Assembly (NCBI GenBank): GCA_964276145.1
Contig: CAXYDN010000007.1
Location: forward strand, 271,686 to 335,685
DNA: 64,000 bases
Direction of reading: 5' to 3'
Source of the DNA: an uncultured SAR86 cluster bacterium
Lineage (GTDB): Bacteria > Pseudomonadota > Gammaproteobacteria > Magnimaribacterales > D2472
Of the stretch, positions 5,247 through 40,848 are shown piece by piece. The first letter of the stretch is position 1. Every line of letters begins with the position of its first letter. The notes under the pieces are model-generated. The model saw nothing but the letters and a program-made list of their open reading frames with translations, did not search any database and had not been told where the DNA came from. Both the position numbers and the translations under genes were made by a program.

Positions 5247-8052
5247 CTATTGTAAAGCTTCTGTAACAAGATTACTTTGTTGCTCGAGATGTAATTTCAT
5301 CATTCCAACAGCTGGAGCTGCAGCAGGAGGTCTGCTAACTAAAGTAATTTCTTTATCTTTTCCAAGTCTATCTAATACTCTCTGGAGTCTATGTCTATGG
5401 CTAAACCAAGCACCTTGATTTTGAGGTTCTTCTTGACACCAAACAATGTCTTTAACATTCTCATATTCCATGAGAATTTCTTCAAGATCATCATATGGAA
5501 ATGGATAAAGCTGTTCTATTCTTACTATTGCAATGTTATCTTTTTGTTCACTATTTTGTCTGTCTTTGAGATCGTAAAAAACTTTACCTGAACATAAAAC
5601 AACTTTCGTTATTGAAGGTTTATTTTTAACTTCATCATCAATTACACATTTGAATGAGCCTTTTGTAAGATCTTTGAGTGAAGATGTTGCCTTAGGATTT
5701 CTTAATAAACTTTTTGGAGAAATAACCACTAATGGTGTTCTCATTTTTCTAATCGCTTGACGTCTTAATAAATGAAAAATCTGTGAAGGAGAGCTAGGAA
5801 TACAAACTTGTATATTTTCTGATGCACATAACTGAAGAAACCTCTCAATTCTAGCGCTGCTATGCTCAGGCCCCTGGCCTTCATATCCATGAGGTAAAAG
5901 CATAACAAGGCCTGATAGCCTTTCCCATTTATGTTGAGCTGAAACAATAAATTGATCAATAACAACTTGAGCTCCATTAACAAAATCACCAAATTGAGCT
6001 TCCCAGATAGTTAAACCTGTTGGCCATGTAGCTGAATACCCGTATTCAAACGCTAAAACAGCTTCTTCTGAAAGCAATGAATCATATATATCAAACCTAG
6101 TATTATTCTCTCTAGCTATTTTAGATAAAGGGATGAACCCTTCTCCTGAATCTTTATCAAAAACACATGCATGTCTGTGAGAAAATGTACCTCTTCTTAC
6201 ATCTTGGCCTGTAATTCTAATCGGATAACCCTCTTCTAATAATGAGGCATACGCCATGCTTTCAGCATAACCCCAGTTTATATCTAGACTTCCATCGGTC
6301 ATCTTTTTTCTATCATTAAAGATTTTTAACGCTTGATTTCCTAGTTGAAATGAATCAGGTACTTCACAAACTTTCCTGCCTAAAGATGTAAATTTTTTAG
6401 CATTATATGAGGTATCAACTTTTGGCCACCATAGAACATCCATATAGTCAGTCCAGTCAAACCAGAGAGAGTTATTTGAATGATCTGAAAGGCTCTTTGC
6501 TACTGTTTTACCAGCCTCTAAAGATTCTCTGTAATTATTTTTAATATTTAATGCAGATTCTTTAGTTATAAACCCTTCACTCATTAATTTTTCTTGGTAC
6601 TGATTTAAAACTGAAGGATGTTTTGCAATTTTCTTGTACATTGAAGGTTGAGTTGCAGATGGATCATCTGCCTCATTATGCCCCCTTCTTCTATAACAAA
6701 ATAAATCAATCACAACATCTTTGTGAAACTTTTCTCTGTATTTACAAGCAATTTTTACAGCCTTGATAACCATTTCTGGATCATCGCCATTTACATGTAT
6801 TACTGGAGCCTGGATCATTTTTGCAACATCAGTTGAATAATCTGTTGATCTTGCATCATTCTTGTTGCTCGTAGTAAAACCAATTTGATTATTTACAATG
6901 ATATGGATTGCGCCTCCAACATTAAAACCTCTAGTTTGTGACATTTGCAAGGATTCCATCACAACCCCTTGGCCAGAAAAAGAAGCATCTCCATGAAGTA
7001 GGACTGGTACTACTTTTTTTCTATCATTATCATCTAGCCTATCCTGCCTTGCTCTAACTGAACCAAGAACAACAGGATCTACTATTTCTAAATGAGATGG
7101 ATTATTGTTAAGAGATACATGAACCTCACCGCCAGGGGTATTGATATTTGATGAGAATCCTAAATGATATTTAACATCTCCAGTATTTGCACCCTCTAGC
7201 TCTCCACTTTCATCAAATGCAGAGAATAAGTCAGCTGGAAATTTGCCTAGAACATTTACTAATAAATTTAATCTTCCCCTATGGGCCATTCCGAAACATA
7301 TCTGATTGGCACCAAGACTTCCACAATTTTGTATAACAGCATCAACTAAAGGCACTAATGATTCACTCCCATCTATACCAAATCGTTTCATACCAGGATA
7401 TTTAGCAGCTAAATATTTTGCTAAACCCTCTGCAGAATTTAGTCTTTCATATATATGCAATTTTTCATCTTTTGAAAAAGAATAAGATTCAATTTTTGAT
7501 TCAAATTTCTTTTGGAACCACCTTCTTTCATTTGAATTCATAATATAGTTGTATTCGATACCTATATTTCCACAATAAATTCTTCTTAAATCGTCTAAAA
7601 TATTTTTTAAAGATGATTTTTTTGAGCCTGAATTAAAAGTATCTGTATAAAACTCAGTATCTAAATCATCTTCTGATAGTCCATGAAACTCAATTTTAAG
7701 ATCTTCGATTGGATTTCTATCCATCATGTCCAGCGGATCTAAAGTTGCCTCTTGATGACCTCTATTTCTATATGATTGAATAAGTCTTATTACCTTACCT
7801 TGTCTTTCATCAATCTCCTCTTTTGCAGAAACAGCTCCTCTTGAAAGATTTTTAAATTCATTAATTACGCTTTGATGCGATATTTCTCCATTTCTATCTT
7901 GTTCACTAGGAAGATTTGAAAAAGAAATCAGACCATTCTTTTGAAAGATTTTCTGGAGTTGTTAGGTATATTTCATATAGGGTTTCTAGGTAGGCCGCAT
8001 GTCCTGCTGACAAGTGTGAACTCCCCCATAGTTCTTGCATTGATTGACTCAT
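5247..8052 (-). pseudogene. sucA: 2-oxoglutarate dehydrogenase E1, reading frame broken by one extra base near codon 45
   Basis: The 826-aa ORF 5247-7727 is SucA-like but lacks about 110 N-terminal residues. Its frame stays open upstream to 7961. A second frame starting at ATG 8052 encodes MSQSMQELWGSSHLSAGHAAYLETLYEIYLTTPENLSKEWSDFF, the canonical SucA N-terminus, and stops at TAG 7906-7908. Deleting one T from the T5 run in GATTTCTTTTTCAAATC joins the frames to give ...EWSDFFSNLPSEQ... and a protein of about 934 aa. Confidence 0.85.
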
Positions 8053-8058
8053 CGCTAT

Positions 8059-14013: not shown

Positions 14014-14655
14014 TTATAAAGATAGATTTGATATTTTCATTGCAACTATTGAAATAGACATTTCATCAGAATACTGCTCTTTTGCAAGTAAATATTGTTC
14101 TTTTGCAAGTTGGTTTTTTTCTTGTTTATTTAAAATATCACCAGAAAGCTCATGAATAATAGGGCTTGAAGAGGAAGAATATTTTTCAAGCATTTGTAAT
14201 GCTGAATCATAGTTTTTATCCACATAAAGCAATCTTGCGGCATTGACTCTGGCAATCTTGTTAAATAAGTCATTCCCACCAATACCATCGGTTATGTCTA
14301 TAAGTAATTTAAATAATTCTAGAGATTTGGTAAGCTCTCCTAATCTTGCATATGATGAAGCTTGATTAAGTAATGCAACTTTTGTGTATCCAGTGTTTTT
14401 ATAGGAATCTACGAGTTCATTAAATAGCTGATCAGACAACATCTGGCCTTCTTCCGTTTCTATTTCTTGCGCAATCCAATCATTATAAATCTTTGCTGCT
14501 TTTTCATTATTGACTTTTGATAGCTGATTTAAAATAATAAAACTGGATACTGCTATTATTGATATGGCAGTAAGTACTAAAATGTAATTACGATACTTTT
14601 CATAAAAATTTCTTACTGATGCTAATCCAGCATTGTGTTCGTATACTTCATTCAT
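14014..14655 (-). CDS. yfgM: YfgM-like membrane-anchored TPR protein (ancillary SecYEG-associated)
   Basis: 213 aa with a single N-terminal TM segment and a helical TPR-like body, placed between hisS and bamB as in E. coli and Pseudomonas. Confidence 0.75.
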   Translation of the reverse strand: MNEVYEHNAGLASVRNFYEKYRNYILVLTAISIIAVSSFIILNQLSKVNNEKAAKIYNDWIAQEIETEEGQMLSDQLFNELVDSYKNTGYTKVALLNQASSYARLGELTKSLELFKLLIDITDGIGGNDLFNKIARVNAARLLYVDKNYDSALQMLEKYSSSSSPIIHELSGDILNKQEKNQLAKEQYLLAKEQYSDEMSISIVAMKISNLSL

Positions 14656-29367: not shown

Positions 29368-29443
29368 TGGTGGGTCGCACAGGATTCGAACCTGTGACCA
29401 ATTGGTTAAAAGCCAACTGCTCTACCAGCTGAGCTAGCGACCC
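29368..29443 (-). tRNA. tRNA-Lys (anticodon UUU), CCA encoded
   Basis: The minus strand reads GGGTCGCTAGCTCAGCTGGTAGAGCAGTTGGCTTTTAACCAATTGGTCACAGGTTCGAATCCTGTGCGACCCACCA. I folded it manually: 7-bp acceptor stem, GCTC/GAGC D stem, CTTTTAA anticodon loop, ACAGG/CCTGT T stem and TTCGAAT T loop. It follows cpoB, as lysT does in E. coli. Confidence 0.95.
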
Positions 29444-29470: not shown

Positions 29471-30121
29471 TTATTCCATATTTTTCAATAACTGCAAGGC
29501 TAAAGATGAAGCAGTATCATTTGGATATTCTCTAATAACAAAATTATACTTCTCCATGGCTTTATCTAGTTCATTATTTTTTAGTAGGATATCTCCAATT
29601 TTTTTGTGTGCTAGCGGGATTCTGTAATGCTCTGGATAAAGAGTTATAAGATCTAGAAAATATGCATTAGAGATTTTGTAGTCATTTTGAATATATGCAA
29701 TCTCCCCAAGCCAAAAATATGACAATGGAAGTTTTTCTTCATCCTTAAAGCTTTTAACAAAATACTCAAATAAAGATGATGCCTTAACGAAATCTTGGTC
29801 TCCCAGTGCATTTATTGCTAACTGATAGACTTCCTCTTTACTTTTAGTATCGTCAACACCAGAAAACTTTATTGTATTATTTGAATCAAAATTATCTTCG
29901 TTAGTTTTATTAGTAGCAATGTCATCTTCTTTTACTGATTCTTGAATTAATTTCCGAATTAAAAAATCTTGAGATTCTAATCTATTTCTTAAGTCCGCAA
30001 TTTCTATCTCGAGTTCCTGTATCTTTAGAAATAAAAGATCAACTTCTACACTGCCATCTTCTTGCGCAAAAGAATTTAAGCTAATTAATAAAATAGAGAA
30101 AATTAAAAAATTTTTTTTCAT
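29471..30121 (-). CDS. cpoB: Cell division coordinator CpoB (YbgF)
   Basis: 216 aa with a signal peptide, an N-terminal coiled coil and C-terminal TPR repeats. It is the last gene of the tol-pal block. Confidence 0.85.
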   Translation of the reverse strand: MKKNFLIFSILLISLNSFAQEDGSVEVDLLFLKIQELEIEIADLRNRLESQDFLIRKLIQESVKEDDIATNKTNEDNFDSNNTIKFSGVDDTKSKEEVYQLAINALGDQDFVKASSLFEYFVKSFKDEEKLPLSYFWLGEIAYIQNDYKISNAYFLDLITLYPEHYRIPLAHKKIGDILLKNNELDKAMEKYNFVIREYPNDTASSLALQLLKNME

Positions 30122-30124
30122 TAA

Positions 30125-30628
30125 CTAGTTAATTTCTGCCCGTCTATTTTTACTGTAACTAGCTTCATTGGAGCCATCTAAAATAGGTCTTTCTTCTCCA
30201 TAACTTTTAACCATTATTCTATTTGCATTGATGCCATTAATAGCAAAATAATCTCTTACAGATTCAGCTCTTCTCTGCCCAAGAGCTAAATTATATTCTC
30301 TAGTTCCTCTTTCATCAGCGTGACCAGAAATTGTAATTTTAATGGAGGAATTGTCTTTCATTGCAGCAACTGCACTTTTTAGAGTTTGAAGTGACTTACT
30401 ATTTAAATTAAATTTATCAAATTCAAAATAAACTGTAGCATTTGTAAAAATTGCTTTGGATTCATAATCTAAGCTTGTCTCTTCCTGAATAGCTGCTTCT
30501 ACAGTTCTTATTCCACCATCGTATACAACCTCTTCTGTTACATTCATGCTTGAGCATGATGAGATTAAAAAAATTATGATCAAAAGATTAAATAAATTTT
30601 TATTGCCTATTTGTTGAATATTAAACAT
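30125..30628 (-). CDS. pal: Peptidoglycan-associated lipoprotein Pal
   Basis: 167 aa with lipobox ISSCSS and an OmpA-like C-domain (GHADERGTREYNLALGQRRA). Confidence 0.95.
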   Translation of the reverse strand: MFNIQQIGNKNLFNLLIIIFLISSCSSMNVTEEVVYDGGIRTVEAAIQEETSLDYESKAIFTNATVYFEFDKFNLNSKSLQTLKSAVAAMKDNSSIKITISGHADERGTREYNLALGQRRAESVRDYFAINGINANRIMVKSYGEERPILDGSNEASYSKNRRAEIN

Positions 30629-30648: not shown

Positions 30649-31926
30649 TTATCTTAAAAAACCGGACCAAGATGGCTCTCTAACTTCACCTTTTTTCATG
30701 GGTAGTCTAAATCTTGCCCCACTTAAAGTTACTCCAGCTAGAAGACCTGTTTCGTTCTCCGATATTGCATAGATTATCACATTACCATTAGCAGAAATAC
30801 TAGGTGACTCATCTAATTGAGAATTAGTTAATGGTCTTACAAAATTTTCATTAAAATATTTTAGTGCTATCTGAAAATTACTATTTTTTCTATGAACAAA
30901 AACAACTCCTTCACCATTTGGAAGGTAAGATCCTTTAGCATTATAGTTTCCTTCAAATGTAATTCTTTGCGGTTTTGCATTAAATTTTTTTAAATTAATT
31001 TCATACAATTGAGGCGAGCCAGATCTTCCGGAGGTAAACATAATTTTTGAGCCATTGGGTGACCATGAAGATTCTGTATCTATAGAGTAATGATTTGTTA
31101 ATCTAGTTAGATTTTTATTCTTTAAATTAAGTATGTAAATTTCAGCATTTCCATCTTGGTATAAGGTTAATGCCATAAATTTTCCATTTGGGGACCATGA
31201 TGGTGAGCTAATTTGAAACTTGTTTTCTAAAACAATTTCTCTTTTGCCAGTGGCAATATTTTGAATAAATACTTTTGCCATACCTGTCTCAAAAGAGACA
31301 TATGCTACTTTTTTCGAATCTGGAGACCATGAAGGAGATATAATCGGCTCATTACTTCTTAAAAGTATTTGCTCATTTGAACCGTCAGCATCAGCAACAT
31401 TTAATTTAAATTGCGAGATGCCTCCTGAGAACTCTTCTGTAACATATAATAACCTAGTCGATGAAACACCCTTTAAACCTGTGATTTCTTCATATATTCC
31501 ATCACTGATGTAATGAGCTAGCTGTTTAAGCTTATTAGGCACACCATAAACTGTTGATGTTCTTAATTGTGATTCTTTTTGTACACTAAATATTTTATAA
31601 ACTGCTGAGATATTACTTGTGTCTTCTTCTTCCAATGACCCCATAACGATGTAATCAATGCCTAATAATTTGAAATCACTATAATTCAAATTATCTTCAT
31701 TTGTTGGAATTGATAAAAGCTGTTTGTTATCCAATATTCTAAATTCGCCGGTTCTATTCAAGTCATTTTTTACAATGTTACTAACTTCGTATATTTTGGT
31801 TTCACTTCCATCGAAGTTTAGTAATGCTAATGAATATGGATTATCTGATCCCTTTGTGATTTCCAATACTAGCTCGGAAAAAATAGGTTGGGCTATTAAT
31901 AATATTGTTAAGATGTATTTCTTCAT
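30649..31926 (-). CDS. tolB: Tol-Pal system beta-propeller protein TolB
   Basis: 425 aa with a signal peptide and repeated SPSWSPD/SWSPNG propeller blades. Confidence 0.96.
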   Translation of the reverse strand: MKKYILTILLIAQPIFSELVLEITKGSDNPYSLALLNFDGSETKIYEVSNIVKNDLNRTGEFRILDNKQLLSIPTNEDNLNYSDFKLLGIDYIVMGSLEEEDTSNISAVYKIFSVQKESQLRTSTVYGVPNKLKQLAHYISDGIYEEITGLKGVSSTRLLYVTEEFSGGISQFKLNVADADGSNEQILLRSNEPIISPSWSPDSKKVAYVSFETGMAKVFIQNIATGKREIVLENKFQISSPSWSPNGKFMALTLYQDGNAEIYILNLKNKNLTRLTNHYSIDTESSWSPNGSKIMFTSGRSGSPQLYEINLKKFNAKPQRITFEGNYNAKGSYLPNGEGVVFVHRKNSNFQIALKYFNENFVRPLTNSQLDESPSISANGNVIIYAISENETGLLAGVTLSGARFRLPMKKGEVREPSWSGFLR

Positions 31927-32531
31927 GCTGGGTTGAATGTGATAACTATATTTTTAAAACTAGTTTGATAAATATTAAATGGGATTTTAGTAAAAAAAGA
32001 AAAGGTTTCAACTCTTGATATGGCTTTAATAGCTGAATTATCAAATCTGATGTTTCCACTACTTTTTATTAAATCTATATTGATAACCCTCCCATTTTTA
32101 TTTATTGTCATTCTTAAATCACAAATAAGGCCATCTTGAATATTTTTTGGCTTTATCCATGCTGATTGAATTGCTTTAATGATAAGACCGCTGTACTCAC
32201 TAACTAATAAATCGTCAGTTTGTTGAGATATTAGTTCTTCTTCTTGAAGTAACTGATTGATATTAATATCAGGAATTGTAGGAGTAAATTCAATTTTGTT
32301 GTTACTCTGATATACAGTTTTAGATCTAACTATTTGTTTTGATTGCGATATTTCGAGTTCTTTTTGTTTTTTTATTTCCTCTTTAAATACAAGGCTCACA
32401 CTTACAGGCTTGCTTAAAACTTGTCTTTGCTGCTTTTCAAAATAAAAAAAATCAGTTAAAAATAAAATAATAGATGCATGAATTGCAAATGAGATAAATG
32501 AAGCAGAAAAATAATCAGACTTAATTTGCAT
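31923..32531 (-). CDS. tolA: Tol-Pal system protein TolA (short form)
   Basis: 202 aa with an N-terminal TM segment, a short charged helical linker and a TonB_C/TolA-III-like C-terminus. It sits between tolR and tolB. Confidence 0.8.
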   Translation of the reverse strand: MQIKSDYFSASFISFAIHASIILFLTDFFYFEKQQRQVLSKPVSVSLVFKEEIKKQKELEISQSKQIVRSKTVYQSNNKIEFTPTIPDININQLLQEEELISQQTDDLLVSEYSGLIIKAIQSAWIKPKNIQDGLICDLRMTINKNGRVINIDLIKSSGNIRFDNSAIKAISRVETFSFFTKIPFNIYQTSFKNIVITFNPA

Positions 32532-32943
32532 AGCCTGTTGTTACTATTCCTATTTTTGTTATTCCCACACTCTGCACAGCAGCCATTGCCTTAGCAACAC
32601 TATCAAAAACAACATTTTTATCACTTTGAAAAACAATTTCAATATCAGGATTTGCTTCAAAAATAATACTTGATTTTCTTTTTAATTCATTAAGATCGAT
32701 TGGCAAAGACTCATCACCAACATTAATATAATATTTTCCATTTAGGTCTATTGATATTACTAACGGTTCATTTTGCACAGACATTTTGGTTGTATCAGTA
32801 CTTGGAAGATTTACCTCTATACCTTGAATTAATAAAGGAGAAAGAACCATAAAGATTATTAATAATACAAGCATCACATCAATATACGGAACTACATTAA
32901 TTTCAGCTTTTAAGTTTTTTTTCTTTGCCAACCTATAGATCAT
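32521..32943 (-). CDS. tolR: Tol-Pal system protein TolR (ExbD family)
   Basis: 140 aa with the ExbD/TolR motif INVVPYIDVMLVLLIIFM. Confidence 0.93.
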   Translation of the reverse strand: MIYRLAKKKNLKAEINVVPYIDVMLVLLIIFMVLSPLLIQGIEVNLPSTDTTKMSVQNEPLVISIDLNGKYYINVGDESLPIDLNELKRKSSIIFEANPDIEIVFQSDKNVVFDSVAKAMAAVQSVGITKIGIVTTGYAN

Positions 32944-33615
32944 TTATTTTTTTATTGATTGTTTATAAAAAATACTCGCTAGCTCTTCAGAAAAAATTAA
33001 TGTTGACTGACTAATTGTATCCAGCTCAGACGTATATTTATTAAAAGCTATAACTGCAGGAATTGCTGCAAATAAACCCATTGCAGTTGCTACCAAAGCT
33101 TCTGAAATTCCAGGAGCAACAGCATTTATTGTTGCCTGAGTTGCATCTGATAAACCTTGAAAAGATGTCATAATACCCCAAACTGTTCCCAGAAGTCCTA
33201 TATATGGACTTACAGACCCAACATTAGCAAGGAAAGGAAGGTGCTTATTCAATTCTTCCTCATCTGATGCTATTGCAACTCTCATTGATCTATTAATTCC
33301 CTCAAGATCAAGCTCAGTTATTTGATTGCTCTGATCAATTTGAAGAAATTCTTTAAATGAACTTTTAAAAACACTTAATGCTCCATACATTGGAACTGTT
33401 TCATCTTTGATTTCGTTGTATAAAAGATTTAAATCCTCGCCACTCCAAAACCTTTCAAGAAAACTATCATTAATAAGCCTTATTTTTCTATAAAAATTAT
33501 ATCTTTCAACAATCACTATCCATGTTAATAATGACGCAATTAAGAGAATAACCATTACGGTTTTAACAACCATTCCAGCTTCGAGAAAAAGATTTAAAAC
33601 AGAAATATCATTCAT
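32944..33615 (-). CDS. tolQ: Tol-Pal system protein TolQ (MotA/ExbB family)
   Basis: 223 aa with three TM segments and the ExbB/TolQ signature GLLGTVWGIM...EALVATAMGL. Confidence 0.95.
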   Translation of the reverse strand: MNDISVLNLFLEAGMVVKTVMVILLIASLLTWIVIVERYNFYRKIRLINDSFLERFWSGEDLNLLYNEIKDETVPMYGALSVFKSSFKEFLQIDQSNQITELDLEGINRSMRVAIASDEEELNKHLPFLANVGSVSPYIGLLGTVWGIMTSFQGLSDATQATINAVAPGISEALVATAMGLFAAIPAVIAFNKYTSELDTISQSTLIFSEELASIFYKQSIKK

Positions 33616-34036
33616 TTACTTCACCTTTATCAAAAATTAATAATAAATCATTAGGGAAAGGTTTGGGTTTTTTTGTTTCTATATTTACCAAACATGCCTC
33701 AACAAAACCACTGCATATCTTTTCAGATGTCTTAGAATTATAAATATCTTGGTTAAAAATTAACCTAGCCTTAGATTTTTTTGTGACAAGAGTTTGAACA
33801 GTAAGTTCTTCGCCAAGTGTTGCAGGAAGTAAGTAATTTATTTCTATACTTTTTATAACAAATCCAAGTTGAAGCTTTCTTAGTTTTATTTGTGAAATGT
33901 TATTTGATATTAAAAAATCTGAGCGCGCTCTTTCAAAGTACTTAATATAATTAGCATGATAAACAAAGCCTTGAAAATCAGTATCTTCAACATATACAAC
34001 TAAATTAAAGTCTTTATGCTTGAAAATTTTGCTCAT
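33608..34036 (-). CDS. ybgC: Tol-Pal-associated acyl-CoA thioesterase YbgC (4HBT hotdog)
   Basis: 142 aa with the hotdog-fold motif VYVEDTDFQGFVYHANYIKYFE. It lies directly upstream of tolQ. Confidence 0.9.
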   Translation of the reverse strand: MSKIFKHKDFNLVVYVEDTDFQGFVYHANYIKYFERARSDFLISNNISQIKLRKLQLGFVIKSIEINYLLPATLGEELTVQTLVTKKSKARLIFNQDIYNSKTSEKICSGFVEACLVNIETKKPKPFPNDLLLIFDKGEVNE

Positions 34037-34439
34037 GCAATTCTATGTCTTCTTGAAATAACTCAAGGATTATTTGAATGAAATCAGGCCATAATAAATC
34101 AACAGTTATTAGATTATTTGCTATTTTACTGTTGATGCATGAAGCTAAAACTCTAACTTTTATTGGTCTATTATTGAATTTATATACTAAAGCTGGTTTG
34201 AAGTTCTCCTCTCTTGATGAGGCAATCACTTGATCCCACCAATCAGGTCTTGGCTCAGCGCCAGCACCATAAGCTTTACATTCAATACACCAGTTACCAA
34301 GCATTAAATCTGGTAATTCTTTAGTTCTAGTTTGTTCTAAAATTCTTTTTACTGGATTCTTCAGATTTAAATCTTGTATAAGAGCATTAGCTATTTGTCT
34401 TTCAAATGCAGCTCCTTTATTTCTTGAATTAATAGACAA
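34014..34439 (-). CDS. Small PD-(D/E)XK nuclease resembling archaeal Hjc / phage Holliday-junction resolvases (TTG start)
   Basis: 141 aa with an ordered E...D...ExK signature: NKGAAFERQIANAL, ELPDLML and WCIECKAYG. It shows no RuvC-like motifs. It is wedged between yebC (stop 4 nt upstream) and ybgC (23-nt overlap), where ruvCAB lie in Pseudomonas-type synteny. Confidence 0.55.
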   Translation of the reverse strand: MSINSRNKGAAFERQIANALIQDLNLKNPVKRILEQTRTKELPDLMLGNWCIECKAYGAGAEPRPDWWDQVIASSREENFKPALVYKFNNRPIKVRVLASCINSKIANNLITVDLLWPDFIQIILELFQEDIELHEQNFQA

Positions 34440-34442
34440 TTT

Positions 34443-35180
34443 TTATTCTTTAACCTCAAAATTTTCTGGGAATTCTGCATTTGTATGAACTTCTTGAACA
34501 TCGTCTAACTCATCCATAAAATCCATGATTTTTAGAACTTTTTCAGACATTTCTTGATCAACCGAAACAGAGGTTTCTGCTCTGAGTGTTAACTCGGCAT
34601 TAGTATTTTCAATATTATTTTCTTTTAGTGATTTAAGTACATTTTCAAGATCTGAGCTTGAAGTAATAATTTCAAAATAATCCTCTTCGTCAACCAAGTC
34701 ATCAGCACCTGCTTCTAAAGCTATGTCTAATATATCCTCTTCTGAATAACTCTTAGCAACATGAATAATTCCTATTTTATTGAAAAGATACGAAACAGAA
34801 CCATCAGTTCCAAGATTTCCTCCAAATTTAGAAAATGCATGTCTCACATCTGAAACAGTTCTATTTCTATTATCTGACATTGCCTCTACCATTATTGCAA
34901 CCCCACCAGGTCCATAGCCTTCAAGAACTATTTCTTCAAGAGCACCAGTGTCTCCTGTGCCCGAACCTTTCTCAATAGCTCTTTTAATATTATCTTTGGG
35001 CATATTAGCTGCATTAGCTTTATCTAATGCAAGTCTTAGTCTAGGATTATCATCAGGATCTGGGCCACCTTTAGCTGCAACGGTTATTTCTCTAATAACT
35101 TTAGTCCAAACCTTTCCTCTAGACGCATCTTGCCGAGCTTTACGATGCTTAATATTTGCCCATTTGGAATGTCCTGCCAT
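34443..35180 (-). CDS. yebC: YebC/PmpR (TACO1) family transcription/translation factor
   Basis: 245 aa starting [14 protein letters not shown], with further family motifs throughout. Confidence 0.95.
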   Translation of the reverse strand: MAGHSKWANIKHRKARQDASRGKVWTKVIREITVAAKGGPDPDDNPRLRLALDKANAANMPKDNIKRAIEKGSGTGDTGALEEIVLEGYGPGGVAIMVEAMSDNRNRTVSDVRHAFSKFGGNLGTDGSVSYLFNKIGIIHVAKSYSEEDILDIALEAGADDLVDEEDYFEIITSSSDLENVLKSLKENNIENTNAELTLRAETSVSVDQEMSEKVLKIMDFMDELDDVQEVHTNAEFPENFEVKE

Positions 35181-36949
35181 TACTGTTCTTCCTTATGTGT
35201 ACTAATAATTTTAAGCTCTTCTAATTGTGATTTATCTACTTTGCTTGGAGCATCTGTAAGTAAGCAAGTTGCACTCTGAGTCTTAGGAAATGCAATGACA
35301 TCCCTAATATTAGTTGTATCAGTAATTAACATTACCAGCCTATCTAAACCAAATGCAATACCGCCATGTGGAGGACATCCAGATGAAAGAGCTTTCAAAA
35401 GAAAGCCAAATTTACTTTTTGCCTCTTCTTTTGAAATATTTAAGATATCAAATATAGTTTTTTGCATATCAGCATTAAAAACTCTTAATGATCCTCCTCC
35501 TATTTCATACCCATTTAAAACAATGTCATATGCATGAGCAATAGCTTTTTCTGGTTCATTCTGTAATTCTTCAGCTGAGCAATTTGGTAAAGTAAATGGA
35601 TGATGAAGTGATGTTAAATTTCCTTCTGAGTTCTTTTCAAACATAGGGAAATCAACAACCCAGCAAGGCGCCCATTTTGACGTATATAAATCTAGATCTT
35701 CTCCAATTTTTTTAATTAAACTACTCATACTTAAATTAACTACGCCACTCTTCCCAGCTCCAAAAAATATTAAATCATCATTATTGAGTTCTAATTCTGA
35801 TAATAAAGTAGAGATAGTTTCATCTTTTAAGAATTTTAAAATTGGGGATTGAAGACCATTTTCAATATCAGTTTTATCGTTTACTTTTATGTATGCCAAT
35901 CCTTTTGCTCCAAGTTTTGAAACAAAATTTGTATACTCGTCTATCTGACTTCTAGTAAGAGAGTTTCCACCTGGAATTTTTAATGCGACAACCCTAGAGT
36001 TTATATCTTTTGCGGGCTCAGCAAAAACTTTGAATTCCTCATTCATAACTAAATCAGATATTTCAACAAGCTTTAGTGGGATTCTTAAGTCAGGTTTGTC
36101 ACAGCCATAATCTCTTATAGAGTCATGCCAGTCTAAAATAGGAAAATCATCTAATTGATCATCACAAAATCTATGAACTAGTTGCTTAACCATGTCTTCA
36201 CCAACTTGCATGATATATTTTTGATCTATAAAAGAAGCTTCAATATCAATTTGGGTAAATTCAGGTTGTCGATCAGCCCTCAAATCCTCATCTCTAAAAC
36301 ATCTTGCAATTTGATAATATTTATCTAGACCACCCATCATAAGCAACTGTTTAAATAGCTGAGGAGACTGCGGCAAAGCAAAGAAATTACCAGACTGAAC
36401 TCTGCTTGGCAGTATGAAGTCTCTAGCACCCTCTGGAGTTGCTCTTGTTAATATTGGTGTTTCAATTTCGTGGAAATTATTTTCATCTAAATAATTTCTA
36501 ATCAAAGATGTAATTTTCGATCTTGTTACAATCCTTTGATTCATTTCAGGCCGTCTTAAATCTAAAACTCTATTTTTTAATCGAACATCTTCATTAACAT
36601 CTTGGTAGTCATCAAGAGGAAAAACTGGTGTCTCAGCCTTACTTAAAATTTGAATATCTTTGCTTTCAAGCTCTATTTCTCCCGTTGGCATGTTTTTATT
36701 TATGGTGCCTTTAAGCCTTGCTCTAACTATTCCTGAAATTTGAACAACATATTCATTTCTTAAACTCTCAGCGATGGCAAAGGATTCTTCGTTATTAGGA
36801 TTGATTACTGCCTGGCATATACCTTTAATATCTCTTACATCAAGAAATATTACACCTCCATGATCACGTCTTTTATGAATCCACCCACAAATAGTTACTT
36901 CATGCTCAAGGTCTTTTGATGTTATTTCTCCACAATAGTGAGATCTCAT
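35180..36949 (-). CDS. aspS: Aspartate--tRNA ligase
   Basis: 589 aa with an OB anticodon-binding domain ([19 protein letters not shown]), class II motifs ([23 protein letters not shown]) and the bacterial GAD insertion. Confidence 0.97.
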
Positions 36950-36963
36950 AATATTTCCTATAT

Positions 36964-37254
36964 TTATTTACTAATCTTATCTTGTTTAGGTCCTTTCTTG
37001 GAGTCAGAACCTGAATTTTGTGAAGATTTATTAGTTGATTCTTTATCATTTGATACTAAGTTCTTTTTTTGGCCAGTCTTAAAGTCAGTCTCATACCAAC
37101 CGGCGCCTTTTAATCTAAATGAAGGTGCAGAAATTTGCTTAGTAAGAGACTCTTCTCCACAGTTTGGACATAATGTTTTAGGTTTATCACTAAACTTTTG
37201 AATTATTTCAAGTTCCTGTCCACAATTTGAACATTTATAGTCATAAATCGGCAT
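36964..37254 (-). CDS. FmdB-family zinc-ribbon protein
   Basis: 96 aa beginning [12 protein letters not shown]...CPNCG, followed by a low-complexity basic/Ser tail. Confidence 0.8.
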
Positions 37255-39831: not shown

Positions 39832-40848
39832 TTATTTTGTAGATTTTGCTTTACTAGCAATAAAAGCTTCTCGAATTTCCATTAAGAGACTCTCTCTAAT
39901 CTTAGCGTTTTCTTTTAGAAACATGCTGGCTTTAACCTTGCCTTGACCGATAGTCTCTCCATTCATTTTATAAAATGCTCCTGACTTCTCTATCAATCCA
40001 AGTTTGTGGCCATAGTCTAATATTTCACCTTCTGAATTAATGCCCTGACCATACATTATTTGGAATTCTGCTTGCTTGAATGGAGGTGAAACTTTGTTCT
40101 TAACAACTTTAACTCTAGTTTCATTACCCATAATTTCATCGCCTTCTTTAACAGCTCCAATTCTTCTAATATCCAATCTAACTGATGAATAAAATTTTAG
40201 AGCATTTCCACCTGTAGTGGTCTCAGGGCTTCCAAACATAACACCTATTTTCATTCTAATCTGATTAATAAATACTACCGTTGCTCCTGATCTTTGAATA
40301 TTACCTGTTATTTTTCTAAGTGCTTGTGACATAAGTCGGGCTTGAAGACCTACATGATGATCTCCCATCTCTCCCTCTATTTCAGCTCTAGGAACAAGAG
40401 CAGCTACAGAGTCGATTATTACTAGGTCAACACTATTTGATCTGACTAACATATCGGCAACCTCTAATGCTTGCTCACCAGTATCAGGTTGAGAAAGCAA
40501 TAACTCATCAACATTTACTCCAAGCTTCTCTGCATACTGAGGGTCTAACGCATGCTCAGCATCAATAAAAGCACATGTCCCACCATCTTTTTGACATTGA
40601 GCAATTATTTGAAGTGTTAAAGTTGTTTTTCCAGAAGACTCTGGACCATATATTTCAGTAACTCTTCCTTTTGGAATACCACCAATGCCAAGAGCAATGT
40701 CTAGCCCTACTGAACCAGTTGATATTGATGGGATGTCTAGAATCTCTCTATCACCCATCCTCATAACGGTACCTTTACCGAAATGACTATCTATGTCTGC
40801 AAGTGTATCTTTTAATGATTTTGAACCGGTATCTTTTGATTTAGCCAT
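39832..40848 (-). CDS. recA: Recombinase RecA
   Basis: 338 aa with Walker [10 protein letters not shown], the IDAEHALD motif, and L1/L2 loop regions. Confidence 0.98.

Follow-up and report, generated by a model that had tools for sequence, protein, structure and literature searches.

A phage-type PD-(D/E)XK nuclease with an Hjc-like predicted fold occupies the ruvCAB position in SAR86 genomes and is a likely stand-alone junction resolvase

The window analyzed here is a 64,000-nucleotide (64-kb) stretch of DNA from an uncultured SAR86 cluster bacterium of the order Magnimaribacterales (GenBank assembly GCA_964276145.1, contig CAXYDN010000007.1, positions 271,686 to 335,685). On its minus strand, at positions 34014..34439, lies a gene for a nuclease of 141 amino acids (aa) of the PD-(D/E)XK type, recognized by its open reading frame (ORF), a match to the Pfam family PF24608 (PDDEXK_15) and an Hjc-like predicted fold. 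The gene stands between yebC and ybgC, the place in which gammaproteobacteria usually carry ruvC, ruvA and ruvB. We consider it likely that this nuclease is the junction-resolving enzyme of SAR86, acquired from a phage, built on the Hjc fold, fixed in the ruvCAB position and acting without RuvAB. We also lean towards the wider proposition that the whole SAR86 lineage (Magnimaribacterales) carries out RecA recombination without RuvABC or RadA, and that a phage-derived, Hjc-type stand-alone resolvase became fixed in the ruvCAB position at the origin of the order. SAR86 bacteria are among the most abundant free-living bacteria of the ocean, and RuvAB together with RuvC or RecU forms a near-universal core of bacterial recombination. 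If the nuclease is a resolvase, a free-living bacterium can, through genome streamlining, reduce a machine of three genes to a single one of phage origin.

The possibility that the gene is a chance ORF or an annotation artefact was ruled out by the conservation of the ORF and of its start position across 68 genomes, and by the ratio of nonsynonymous to synonymous substitution rates (dN/dS). An initial annotation of this DNA had placed a 141-aa ORF at 34014-34439; that ORF is real, and we add its strand. Our genome scans used one genome per GTDB species, and in all 68 of the full-length SAR86 copies from these species genomes the ORF is exactly 141 codons long. Its start codon in the window is TTG; the same position carries TTG in 54/68 species genomes and ATG in the other 14/68, and the start is considered confirmed because of this agreement. 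Pairwise dN/dS for the nuclease was 0.06-0.08, compared to 0.06-0.07 for aspS, 0.10-0.12 for yebC, 0.11-0.13 for tolQ and 0.26 for ybgC, and the nuclease is under purifying selection about as strong as that on aspS. The gene begins 3 nucleotides (nt) after the yebC stop, in agreement with the 4 nt given earlier if that distance is counted base to base, and its 3' end overlaps the ybgC start by 23 nt, a figure that the ORF coordinates confirm. The three motifs quoted in the initial annotation, NKGAAFERQIANAL, ELPDLML and WCIECKAYG, were all found in the translation.

The position of the nuclease gene was the same in every SAR86 locus inspected. In a first scan, 70 loci were found to encode a protein 69-94% identical to the nuclease, all of them from SAR86-cluster genomes, and a profile scan of the species-genome collection detected a relative in at least 207 genomes, of which the best 80 were all SAR86 or gammaproteobacterial metagenome-assembled genomes (MAGs). 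The gene order aspS-yebC-nuclease-ybgC-tolQ was present in 70/70 loci of the first scan, in 80/80 of those best genomes of the profile scan, and in four further contigs; in 154/154 loci inspected, the nuclease gene lay between yebC and ybgC-tolQRAB-pal-cpoB. This includes the closed chromosome (CP151794.1) of the first SAR86 isolate, HIMB1674, which carries the nuclease in the same slot. In SAR86 lineages that are more distant, orthologues with 55-60% identity also occupy it. No phage genes were found within 10 kb of the nuclease in any SAR86 locus, and a prophage remnant was thereby ruled out. Two contigs that carry the nuclease bear labels foreign to SAR86. One of these (L205, PAWD01000035.1), labelled "Thaumarchaeota archaeon SAT137", carries the SAR86 block recA-proS-aspS-yebC-nuclease-ybgC-tolQRAB-pal, and the other (L053, PAQA01000034.1), labelled "Rhodospirillaceae bacterium SP147", carries the same block from proS onward. 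As both have the typical SAR86 block, the archaeal and alphaproteobacterial labels almost certainly reflect mis-binning in the public records.

Comparison with other gammaproteobacteria identifies this slot as that of ruvC, ruvA and ruvB, as the initial annotation had stated. The order in Escherichia coli K-12 is aspS-nudB-yebC-ruvC-yebB-ruvA-ruvB, and in Pseudomonas aeruginosa PA0964-PA0967 are pmpR (YebC), ruvC, ruvA and ruvB. These are followed in P. aeruginosa by ybgC-tolQRAB-oprL-ybgF as PA0968-PA0974. A STRING-based study found YebC, YbgC, TolB, TolQ and TolR to be the top neighbours of RuvA, RuvB and RuvC across bacteria (PMC3403352), in line with the same assignment.

The genes that usually fill the slot appear to have been lost from the lineage. 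Searches (tblastn) with E. coli RuvA, RuvB and RuvC gave nothing significant, either across the 64 kb of the window or in 150 SAR86 loci that each cover 16-20 kb. Ramfelt et al. (2024) reported a set of 28 missing markers, 27 of which are systematically absent from 732 environmental SAR86 genomes (PMC11582366). In their Table S1, of which we examined 47 genome columns, the closed genome of HIMB1674 lacks PF01330 (RuvA_N), PF07499 (RuvA_C), PF05491 (RuvB_C) and PF02075 (RuvC), and the same four markers are scored 0 in the SAR86 columns examined, including that of SAR86A, whose scaffold is locus L028 of our nuclease scan. The columns examined contain a few departures from this pattern. GCA_002402175.1 scores 1 for the Ruv markers, and as GTDB places this 3.9-Mb genome in the Pseudohongiellaceae, it was evidently mis-assigned to SAR86. 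RuvB_C alone is scored 1 in GCA_002400575.1, which the paper left unassigned to any SAR86 family, and RuvA and RuvC are scored 1 in a MAG that is 4.3% contaminated and belongs to a genus whose other members score 0. The absence of RuvABC is thus drawn from the published marker table together with the negative tblastn searches of the window and the 150 loci. A ruvCAB operon elsewhere in the genome, a possibility raised by the initial annotation, is not reported, and the RuvA, RuvB and RuvC markers are missing from HIMB1674 (PMC11582366). A survey of 117 genomes found only two with RecA that had no RuvAB, and only ten without both RuvC and RecU (PMC1193525).

The recombination and repair toolkit of SAR86 is unusually reduced as a whole. 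In the columns of Table S1 that we examined, HIMB1674 and the other SAR86 genomes are also without markers for RadA (TIGR00416), MutS domains I and IV, the MutL C-terminal domain and the Rep helicase; YqgF (PF03652) and RecR markers are present (PMC11582366). SAR86 keeps RecA, the strand-exchange protein that generates Holliday junctions, and in the window recA (39832..40848, minus strand; Pfam RecA_N/RecA_C on the orthologous locus) is found ~5 kb farther upstream, beyond aspS. Loss of the RuvABC markers explains part of the underestimate of SAR86 genome completeness by CheckM. Markers for YbaB/EbfC, LolA/LolD, FtsY, the signal recognition particle (SRP) signal-peptide-binding domain and PrfC were also absent from the same columns (PMC11582366).

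By sequence, the nuclease belongs to PF24608 ("Phage putative PDDEXK endonuclease"), which it matches over residues 4-98 with 40 bits against a gathering threshold of 27 (E 5e-10). This was the sole Pfam family returned at E <= 10, and at that threshold there was no match to RuvC (PF02075), Hjc (PF01870), RusA (PF05866), RecU (PF03838), VRR-NUC (PF08774), Endonuc_Holl (PF10107) or UPF0102/YraN (PF02021). The initial annotation was therefore right that the protein has nothing RuvC-like; its likeness to VRR-NUC-type nucleases was not borne out by the profiles, and neither Endonuc_Holl nor UPF0102/YraN, two further families it had suggested, was matched. Among PHROG families the protein matched phrog_244, a member of the DNA-metabolism category labelled "RusA-like Holliday junction resolvase" (E 5.9e-13). 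A true RusA relative was nonetheless ruled out by the lack of a Pfam RusA match, and the PHROG name is a functional label only. No NCBIfam model matched the nuclease, and PADLOC gave no defence family for it at E <= 10. When 1.84 billion cluster representatives were searched exhaustively with HMMER, only 239 relatives were returned at E <= 1e-3, all of them small proteins, and a profile search of 5.8 billion clusters returned 1638 relatives, all carrying PF24608. Several PF24608 relatives are named "Holliday junction resolvase" by JGI.

Within the PF24608 family, conservation is highest at the ordered E...D...ExK signature. In 51 homologues with 28-56% identity, G9, E13, R32, Q36, D44, E53 and K55 were invariant, and R6, K8, L34, Y57, W67, W68, Q70 and P82 were near-invariant. 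E13, D44, E53 and K55 were also invariant in a 69-member set, and all seven of the invariant residues were retained in 138/138 evaluable SAR86 orthologues (52-95% identity), so that the conservation of the E/D/ExK residues singled out by the initial annotation is well established. In the window, the codons of these putative catalytic residues are at 34401-34403 (E13), 34308-34310 (D44), 34281-34283 (E53) and 34275-34277 (K55) on the minus strand.

Structure prediction points towards Hjc. The AlphaFold2 model of a single chain, made with 69 homologues, had a predicted local distance difference test (pLDDT) score of 86.6 and a predicted template modelling (pTM) score of 0.84. When this model was compared to the PDB with Foldseek, the best 15 matches were all archaeal Hjc Holliday-junction resolvases, from Archaeoglobus fulgidus (2wcw, 2wiw, 2wcz, 2wiz, 2wj0), Pyrococcus furiosus (1gef) and Sulfolobus tokodaii (2eo0), with a best E of 3e-4 and, over the 15 matches, probabilities of 0.97-1.0 and template modelling (TM) scores of 0.41-0.59. 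There was no RecU, RusA or NucS structure in the top 50 PDB matches. Foldseek against predicted viral structures gave 34 matches at E <= 1e-3, of which the best were unnamed phage proteins (TM 0.77-0.78) and several others were annotated as Holliday junction resolvase or Hjc. The hhalign profile-to-sequence alignment with P. furiosus Hjc (Hjc sequence identical to 1gef) placed E13/D44/E53/K55 on E9/D33/E46/K48 (E 8.4e-5, probability 60%), with the corresponding segments in nuclease and Hjc being KGAAFE/KGAQAE, PDL/VDL, IECK/IEVK and PALVYKF/PVLAVKF. We take these four Hjc residues to be the catalytic ones.

On the strength of its model, the nuclease can be described as Hjc-like in fold and active site, yet not a sequence member of the Hjc family. 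Hjc and the SAR86 protein are both small single-domain proteins of about 120-140 aa with a PD-(D/E)XK fold, in the SAR86 protein a predicted one. In both, the N-terminal helix carries K-G-x-x-x-E, the second strand D and the third strand E-x-K. They differ in that the SAR86 protein is without PF01870 membership, is bacterial and phage-related rather than archaeal, and has an additional conserved R32, Q36 and W67-W68-x-Q70 motif. The earlier description of the protein as a Hjc-like PD-(D/E)XK nuclease accordingly agrees with the PF24608 match and with the top 15 Foldseek matches in the PDB; as to Hjc itself (PF01870), the fold and catalytic register agree and the Pfam profile membership does not.

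The nearest relatives of the nuclease outside SAR86 shed light on its origin. More distant homologues, at 31-53% identity, sit on phage contigs. One adjoins genes for an ERF annealing protein and a YqaJ exonuclease, one a Sak single-strand annealing protein (SSAP) and a PDDEXK_14 nuclease, and one a DNA polymerase A, a PDDEXK_1 nuclease and a small terminase. Only six GenBank phages had a detectable homologue, namely five Roseobacter CRP phages and phage C72C1. A locus scan seeded with a 10-member subset of the phage-type members returned almost only SAR86 genomes, the remainder being the Thaumarchaeota-labelled SAR86-type contig and five short contigs (1-19.5 kb) without SAR86 neighbours. In a neighbour-joining tree, the SAR86 sequences formed one clade apart from other phage sequences, with a marine phage copy, P0356, nested inside the SAR86 clade. 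Most simply, the gene was acquired from the recombination module of a phage a single time, when the order arose, and was inherited vertically thereafter, possibly with one transfer back to a phage (P0356). The SAR86 protein has the catalytic residues and protein length of PF24608/PHROG 244; it differs from the other members sampled, which lie in phage recombination, replication or packaging modules, in that its gene is fixed in the chromosome as part of the core genome of a cellular order.

Two of the phage loci deserve mention in their own right. The P0356 contigs (L081:713-4510 and L082:1384-5181) carry the phage copy, at 53% identity, together with phage lysozyme and very large virion-type proteins, and the phage may be one of SAR86. 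Unusual phage cargo is encoded there too: CsgF-/CsgG-like proteins of curli secretion, a protein with a FecR domain and a weak curlin-repeat protein. At L074:10001-10817, a PDDEXK_15 gene overlaps the directly following PDDEXK_14 gene, such that two small PD-(D/E)XK nucleases are encoded in tandem; the pair adjoins a helix-turn-helix (HTH) regulator and lies opposite the Sak annealing-protein module.

We propose that the protein is a small Mg2+-dependent PD-(D/E)XK endonuclease with the Hjc fold. The ancestor of the Magnimaribacterales would have taken up its gene a single time, from a phage recombination module, and the gene would then have become fixed downstream of yebC and upstream of ybgC-tol-pal, in the usual gammaproteobacterial place of ruvC-ruvA-ruvB. 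By analogy with Hjc, it would act as a homodimer that binds the four-way DNA junctions made by RecA and introduces paired nicks in opposing strands, yielding duplexes that can be ligated. The metal would be held by E13, D44 and E53, with K55 as the catalytic lysine. Resolution would proceed independently of the RuvAB motor, lost from the lineage according to the published tables. Any branch migration may fall to another translocase, such as RecG if the lineage has it, or may occur spontaneously or be driven by RecA. The gene is probably expressed with yebC and tol-pal from one tightly packed string of genes. The proposal of the initial annotation, that the canonical resolvasome has been displaced in situ by an archaeal/phage-type enzyme, is supported by our data, with cleavage of junctions predicted by analogy to Hjc.

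Several points weigh against reading the nuclease as a dedicated resolvase. Its nearest relatives are phage proteins, not archaeal ones, and the "resolvase" labels given to PF24608 by JGI and PHROGs are themselves predictions. Searches of the PDB by sequence, with either the protein or the family profile, matched no Hjc or other nuclease, and because of this the link to Hjc is visible through fold comparison and hhalign alone; it is a link of fold and motif rather than of sequence-family membership. The similarity is also modest (Foldseek E ~1e-4, TM 0.5-0.6, hhalign probability 60%). The PD-(D/E)XK fold is common to many nucleases that are not resolvases, and phage junction nucleases are often promiscuous on branched DNA. 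In addition, the order-wide absence of RuvABC depends on the statement of 27/28 markers in 732 genomes and on 47 columns of Table S1, and that table is a screen with marker hidden Markov models (HMMs), not an exhaustive search.

One alternative is that the protein is a broad branched-DNA nuclease, acting mainly on stalled or reversed forks, flaps or D-loops and not dedicated to Holliday-junction resolution. Phage origin would suit such a role, as phage junction nucleases are described as typically more promiscuous than cellular ones (PMC3864405), and with RuvAB absent, fork reversal and processing must be handled differently too. Set against this, the structures that match best are those of archaeal Hjc, which is specific for junctions, and the gene sits exactly in the ruvC position. 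We regard this alternative as unlikely; it overlaps with our preferred reading of a phage-derived junction-resolving enzyme and is compatible with it.

A mismatch endonuclease resembling EndoMS/NucS, standing in for the missing MutS and MutL, is a far less credible candidate. NucS/EndoMS is also a PD-(D/E)XK enzyme. It is a two-domain protein, however, and 141 aa hold a nuclease core only; the NucS structures were missing from the top 50 Foldseek matches, the phage homologues lie beside single-strand annealing proteins and exonucleases, which is a recombination context, and the slot occupied is that of ruvC and not of mutS. The absence of the MutS and MutL markers from HIMB1674 and the SAR86 columns examined is a point in favour of this candidate (PMC11582366). 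That the nuclease is a captured phage gene with a role outside repair (a restriction-like or defence nuclease, a toxin or a selfish remnant) whose adjacency to yebC is coincidental would fit a family that is mostly phage-borne and a domain that is common in defence systems, and is nevertheless very improbable given the lack of a PADLOC match and of phage, methylase or immunity genes nearby in the loci, a fixed position in at least 207 species with orthologue identities of 52-95%, and selection as strong as that on aspS, when defence and selfish genes are normally patchy and mobile. All three alternatives are less consistent than a junction-resolving enzyme with the Hjc match, the phage recombination context, the exact ruvC position, the lack of a defence signature and the housekeeping level of constraint.

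Hjc, RecU and T7 endonuclease I are all junction resolvases of the PD-(D/E)XK type, and it is already known that such resolvases exist, that RecU replaces RuvC, and that RusA can substitute for RuvABC. RecU of the Firmicutes and Mollicutes is the established precedent for a PD-(D/E)XK resolvase replacing RuvC across a bacterial lineage (PMC1193525). As with RecU, the RuvC marker is absent (from the closed HIMB1674 genome, in the published table) and the substitute is conserved and vertically inherited. In contrast to SAR86, which is without RuvA and RuvB markers, bacteria with RecU keep RuvAB and RecU works with it; the SAR86 protein has no RecU Pfam match, and while recU adjoins ruvAB in only two genomes (PMC1193525), the SAR86 gene is in the ruvCAB slot itself. 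RusA, from a cryptic prophage of E. coli, is likewise a phage-derived resolvase able to substitute for RuvABC, a substitution that may depend on RecG (PMC3403352), but it has another fold and family, and is a silent prophage gene activated by mutation and not a fixed core gene. With RuvABC itself, the SAR86 nuclease shares the genomic slot and a presumed end function, the removal of RecA-made junctions. RuvC, however, is an RNase H-fold protein that works together with the RuvAB motor, for three genes in all, whereas SAR86 has a single 141-aa gene of unrelated fold.

What is new, then, is that an Hjc-like enzyme of a phage family belongs to the core genes of a free-living order of proteobacteria and stands in the ruvCAB position, with RuvA and RuvB lost too. 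If this reading is true, SAR86 would be the first lineage of bacteria in which an "archaeal-style" stand-alone resolvase serves as a core housekeeping gene while the RuvAB motor is missing, it would be the second natural lineage-wide displacement of a resolvase after RecU, here without RuvAB, and the uncharacterised phage family PF24608 would gain a function. The matter bears on recombination and mutation rates in SAR86, a dominant ocean heterotroph, and the hypothesis is directly testable because an isolate, HIMB1674, and its closed genome exist. Both ingredients were public separately, in the Pfam family PF24608 and in the supplementary marker table of PMC11582366. The main text of that paper makes no mention of ruv, Holliday or resolvase, and no paper in the literature searched ties SAR86 to these genes or to PF24608, or the loss of RuvABC to this nuclease gene.

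The genes around the nuclease are, like it, encoded on the minus strand. Upstream are yebC (34443..35180; TACO1/YebC family, 51% identity to E. coli YebC, Pfam on the orthologous locus), which in other bacteria usually precedes ruvC, and aspS, the aspartate--tRNA ligase gene at the upstream edge of the conserved block (35180..36949; ORF, and Pfam on the orthologous locus). Downstream is the tol-pal cluster, which begins with ybgC (33608..34036; 4HBT thioesterase, Pfam on the orthologous locus) and continues, with the supporting Pfam match in each case, through tolQ (32944-33615; MotA_ExbB), tolR (32521-32943; ExbD), tolA (31923-32531; TonB_2), tolB (30649-31926; TolB_N), pal (30125-30628; OmpA) and cpoB/ybgF (29471-30121; TPR). 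The tight packing of the nuclease gene, with its 3-nt gap upstream and 23-nt overlap downstream, suggests co-transcription with yebC and the division genes of the tol-pal cluster, as judged only from gene spacing. A simple scan of 29.0-37.6 kb counted 39 promoter-like sites compared to a chance expectation of 42.5 +/- 6.5, and nine weak terminator-like sites compared to an expected 3.5 +/- 1.8, a modest excess; none of the terminator-like sites in the scanned region lay within the nuclease gene or at its junctions with yebC and ybgC.

Directly downstream of cpoB, at 29368-29443 on the minus strand, is a tRNA-Lys(UUU) gene, the sole tRNA and the sole Rfam match in the 64 kb. In E. coli, a lysT tRNA cluster also comes right after ybgF/cpoB, and a tRNA-Lys at this end of the tol-pal cluster seems to be a case of deep synteny. 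At the other side of the block, between aspS and proS, is a gene for a 96-aa zinc-ribbon protein (36964-37254, minus strand; Zn_ribbon_8 on the orthologous locus) with two CxxC pairs and a Lys/Ser-rich tail, and this gene is kept in the SAR86 loci that reach that far.

The first part of the window (1-20656) contains ordinary housekeeping genes, including a cut MATE efflux gene, sucDC, lpdA, sucBA, sdhBADC, der, bamB and hisS, as well as ispG, a RodZ-like gene, rlmN, ndk, iscA and iscU. A 213-aa ORF at 14014-14655 had no NCBIfam match. The ORF for sucA (2-oxoglutarate dehydrogenase E1; 5247-7727, minus strand) encodes 826 aa that align to 106-917 of the 919-position NCBIfam model, such that ~105 N-terminal residues are missing, and a 331-nt non-coding gap (7728-8058) separates sucA from sdhB. 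This sucA represents either a truly shortened SucA or a gene with a decayed 5' end.

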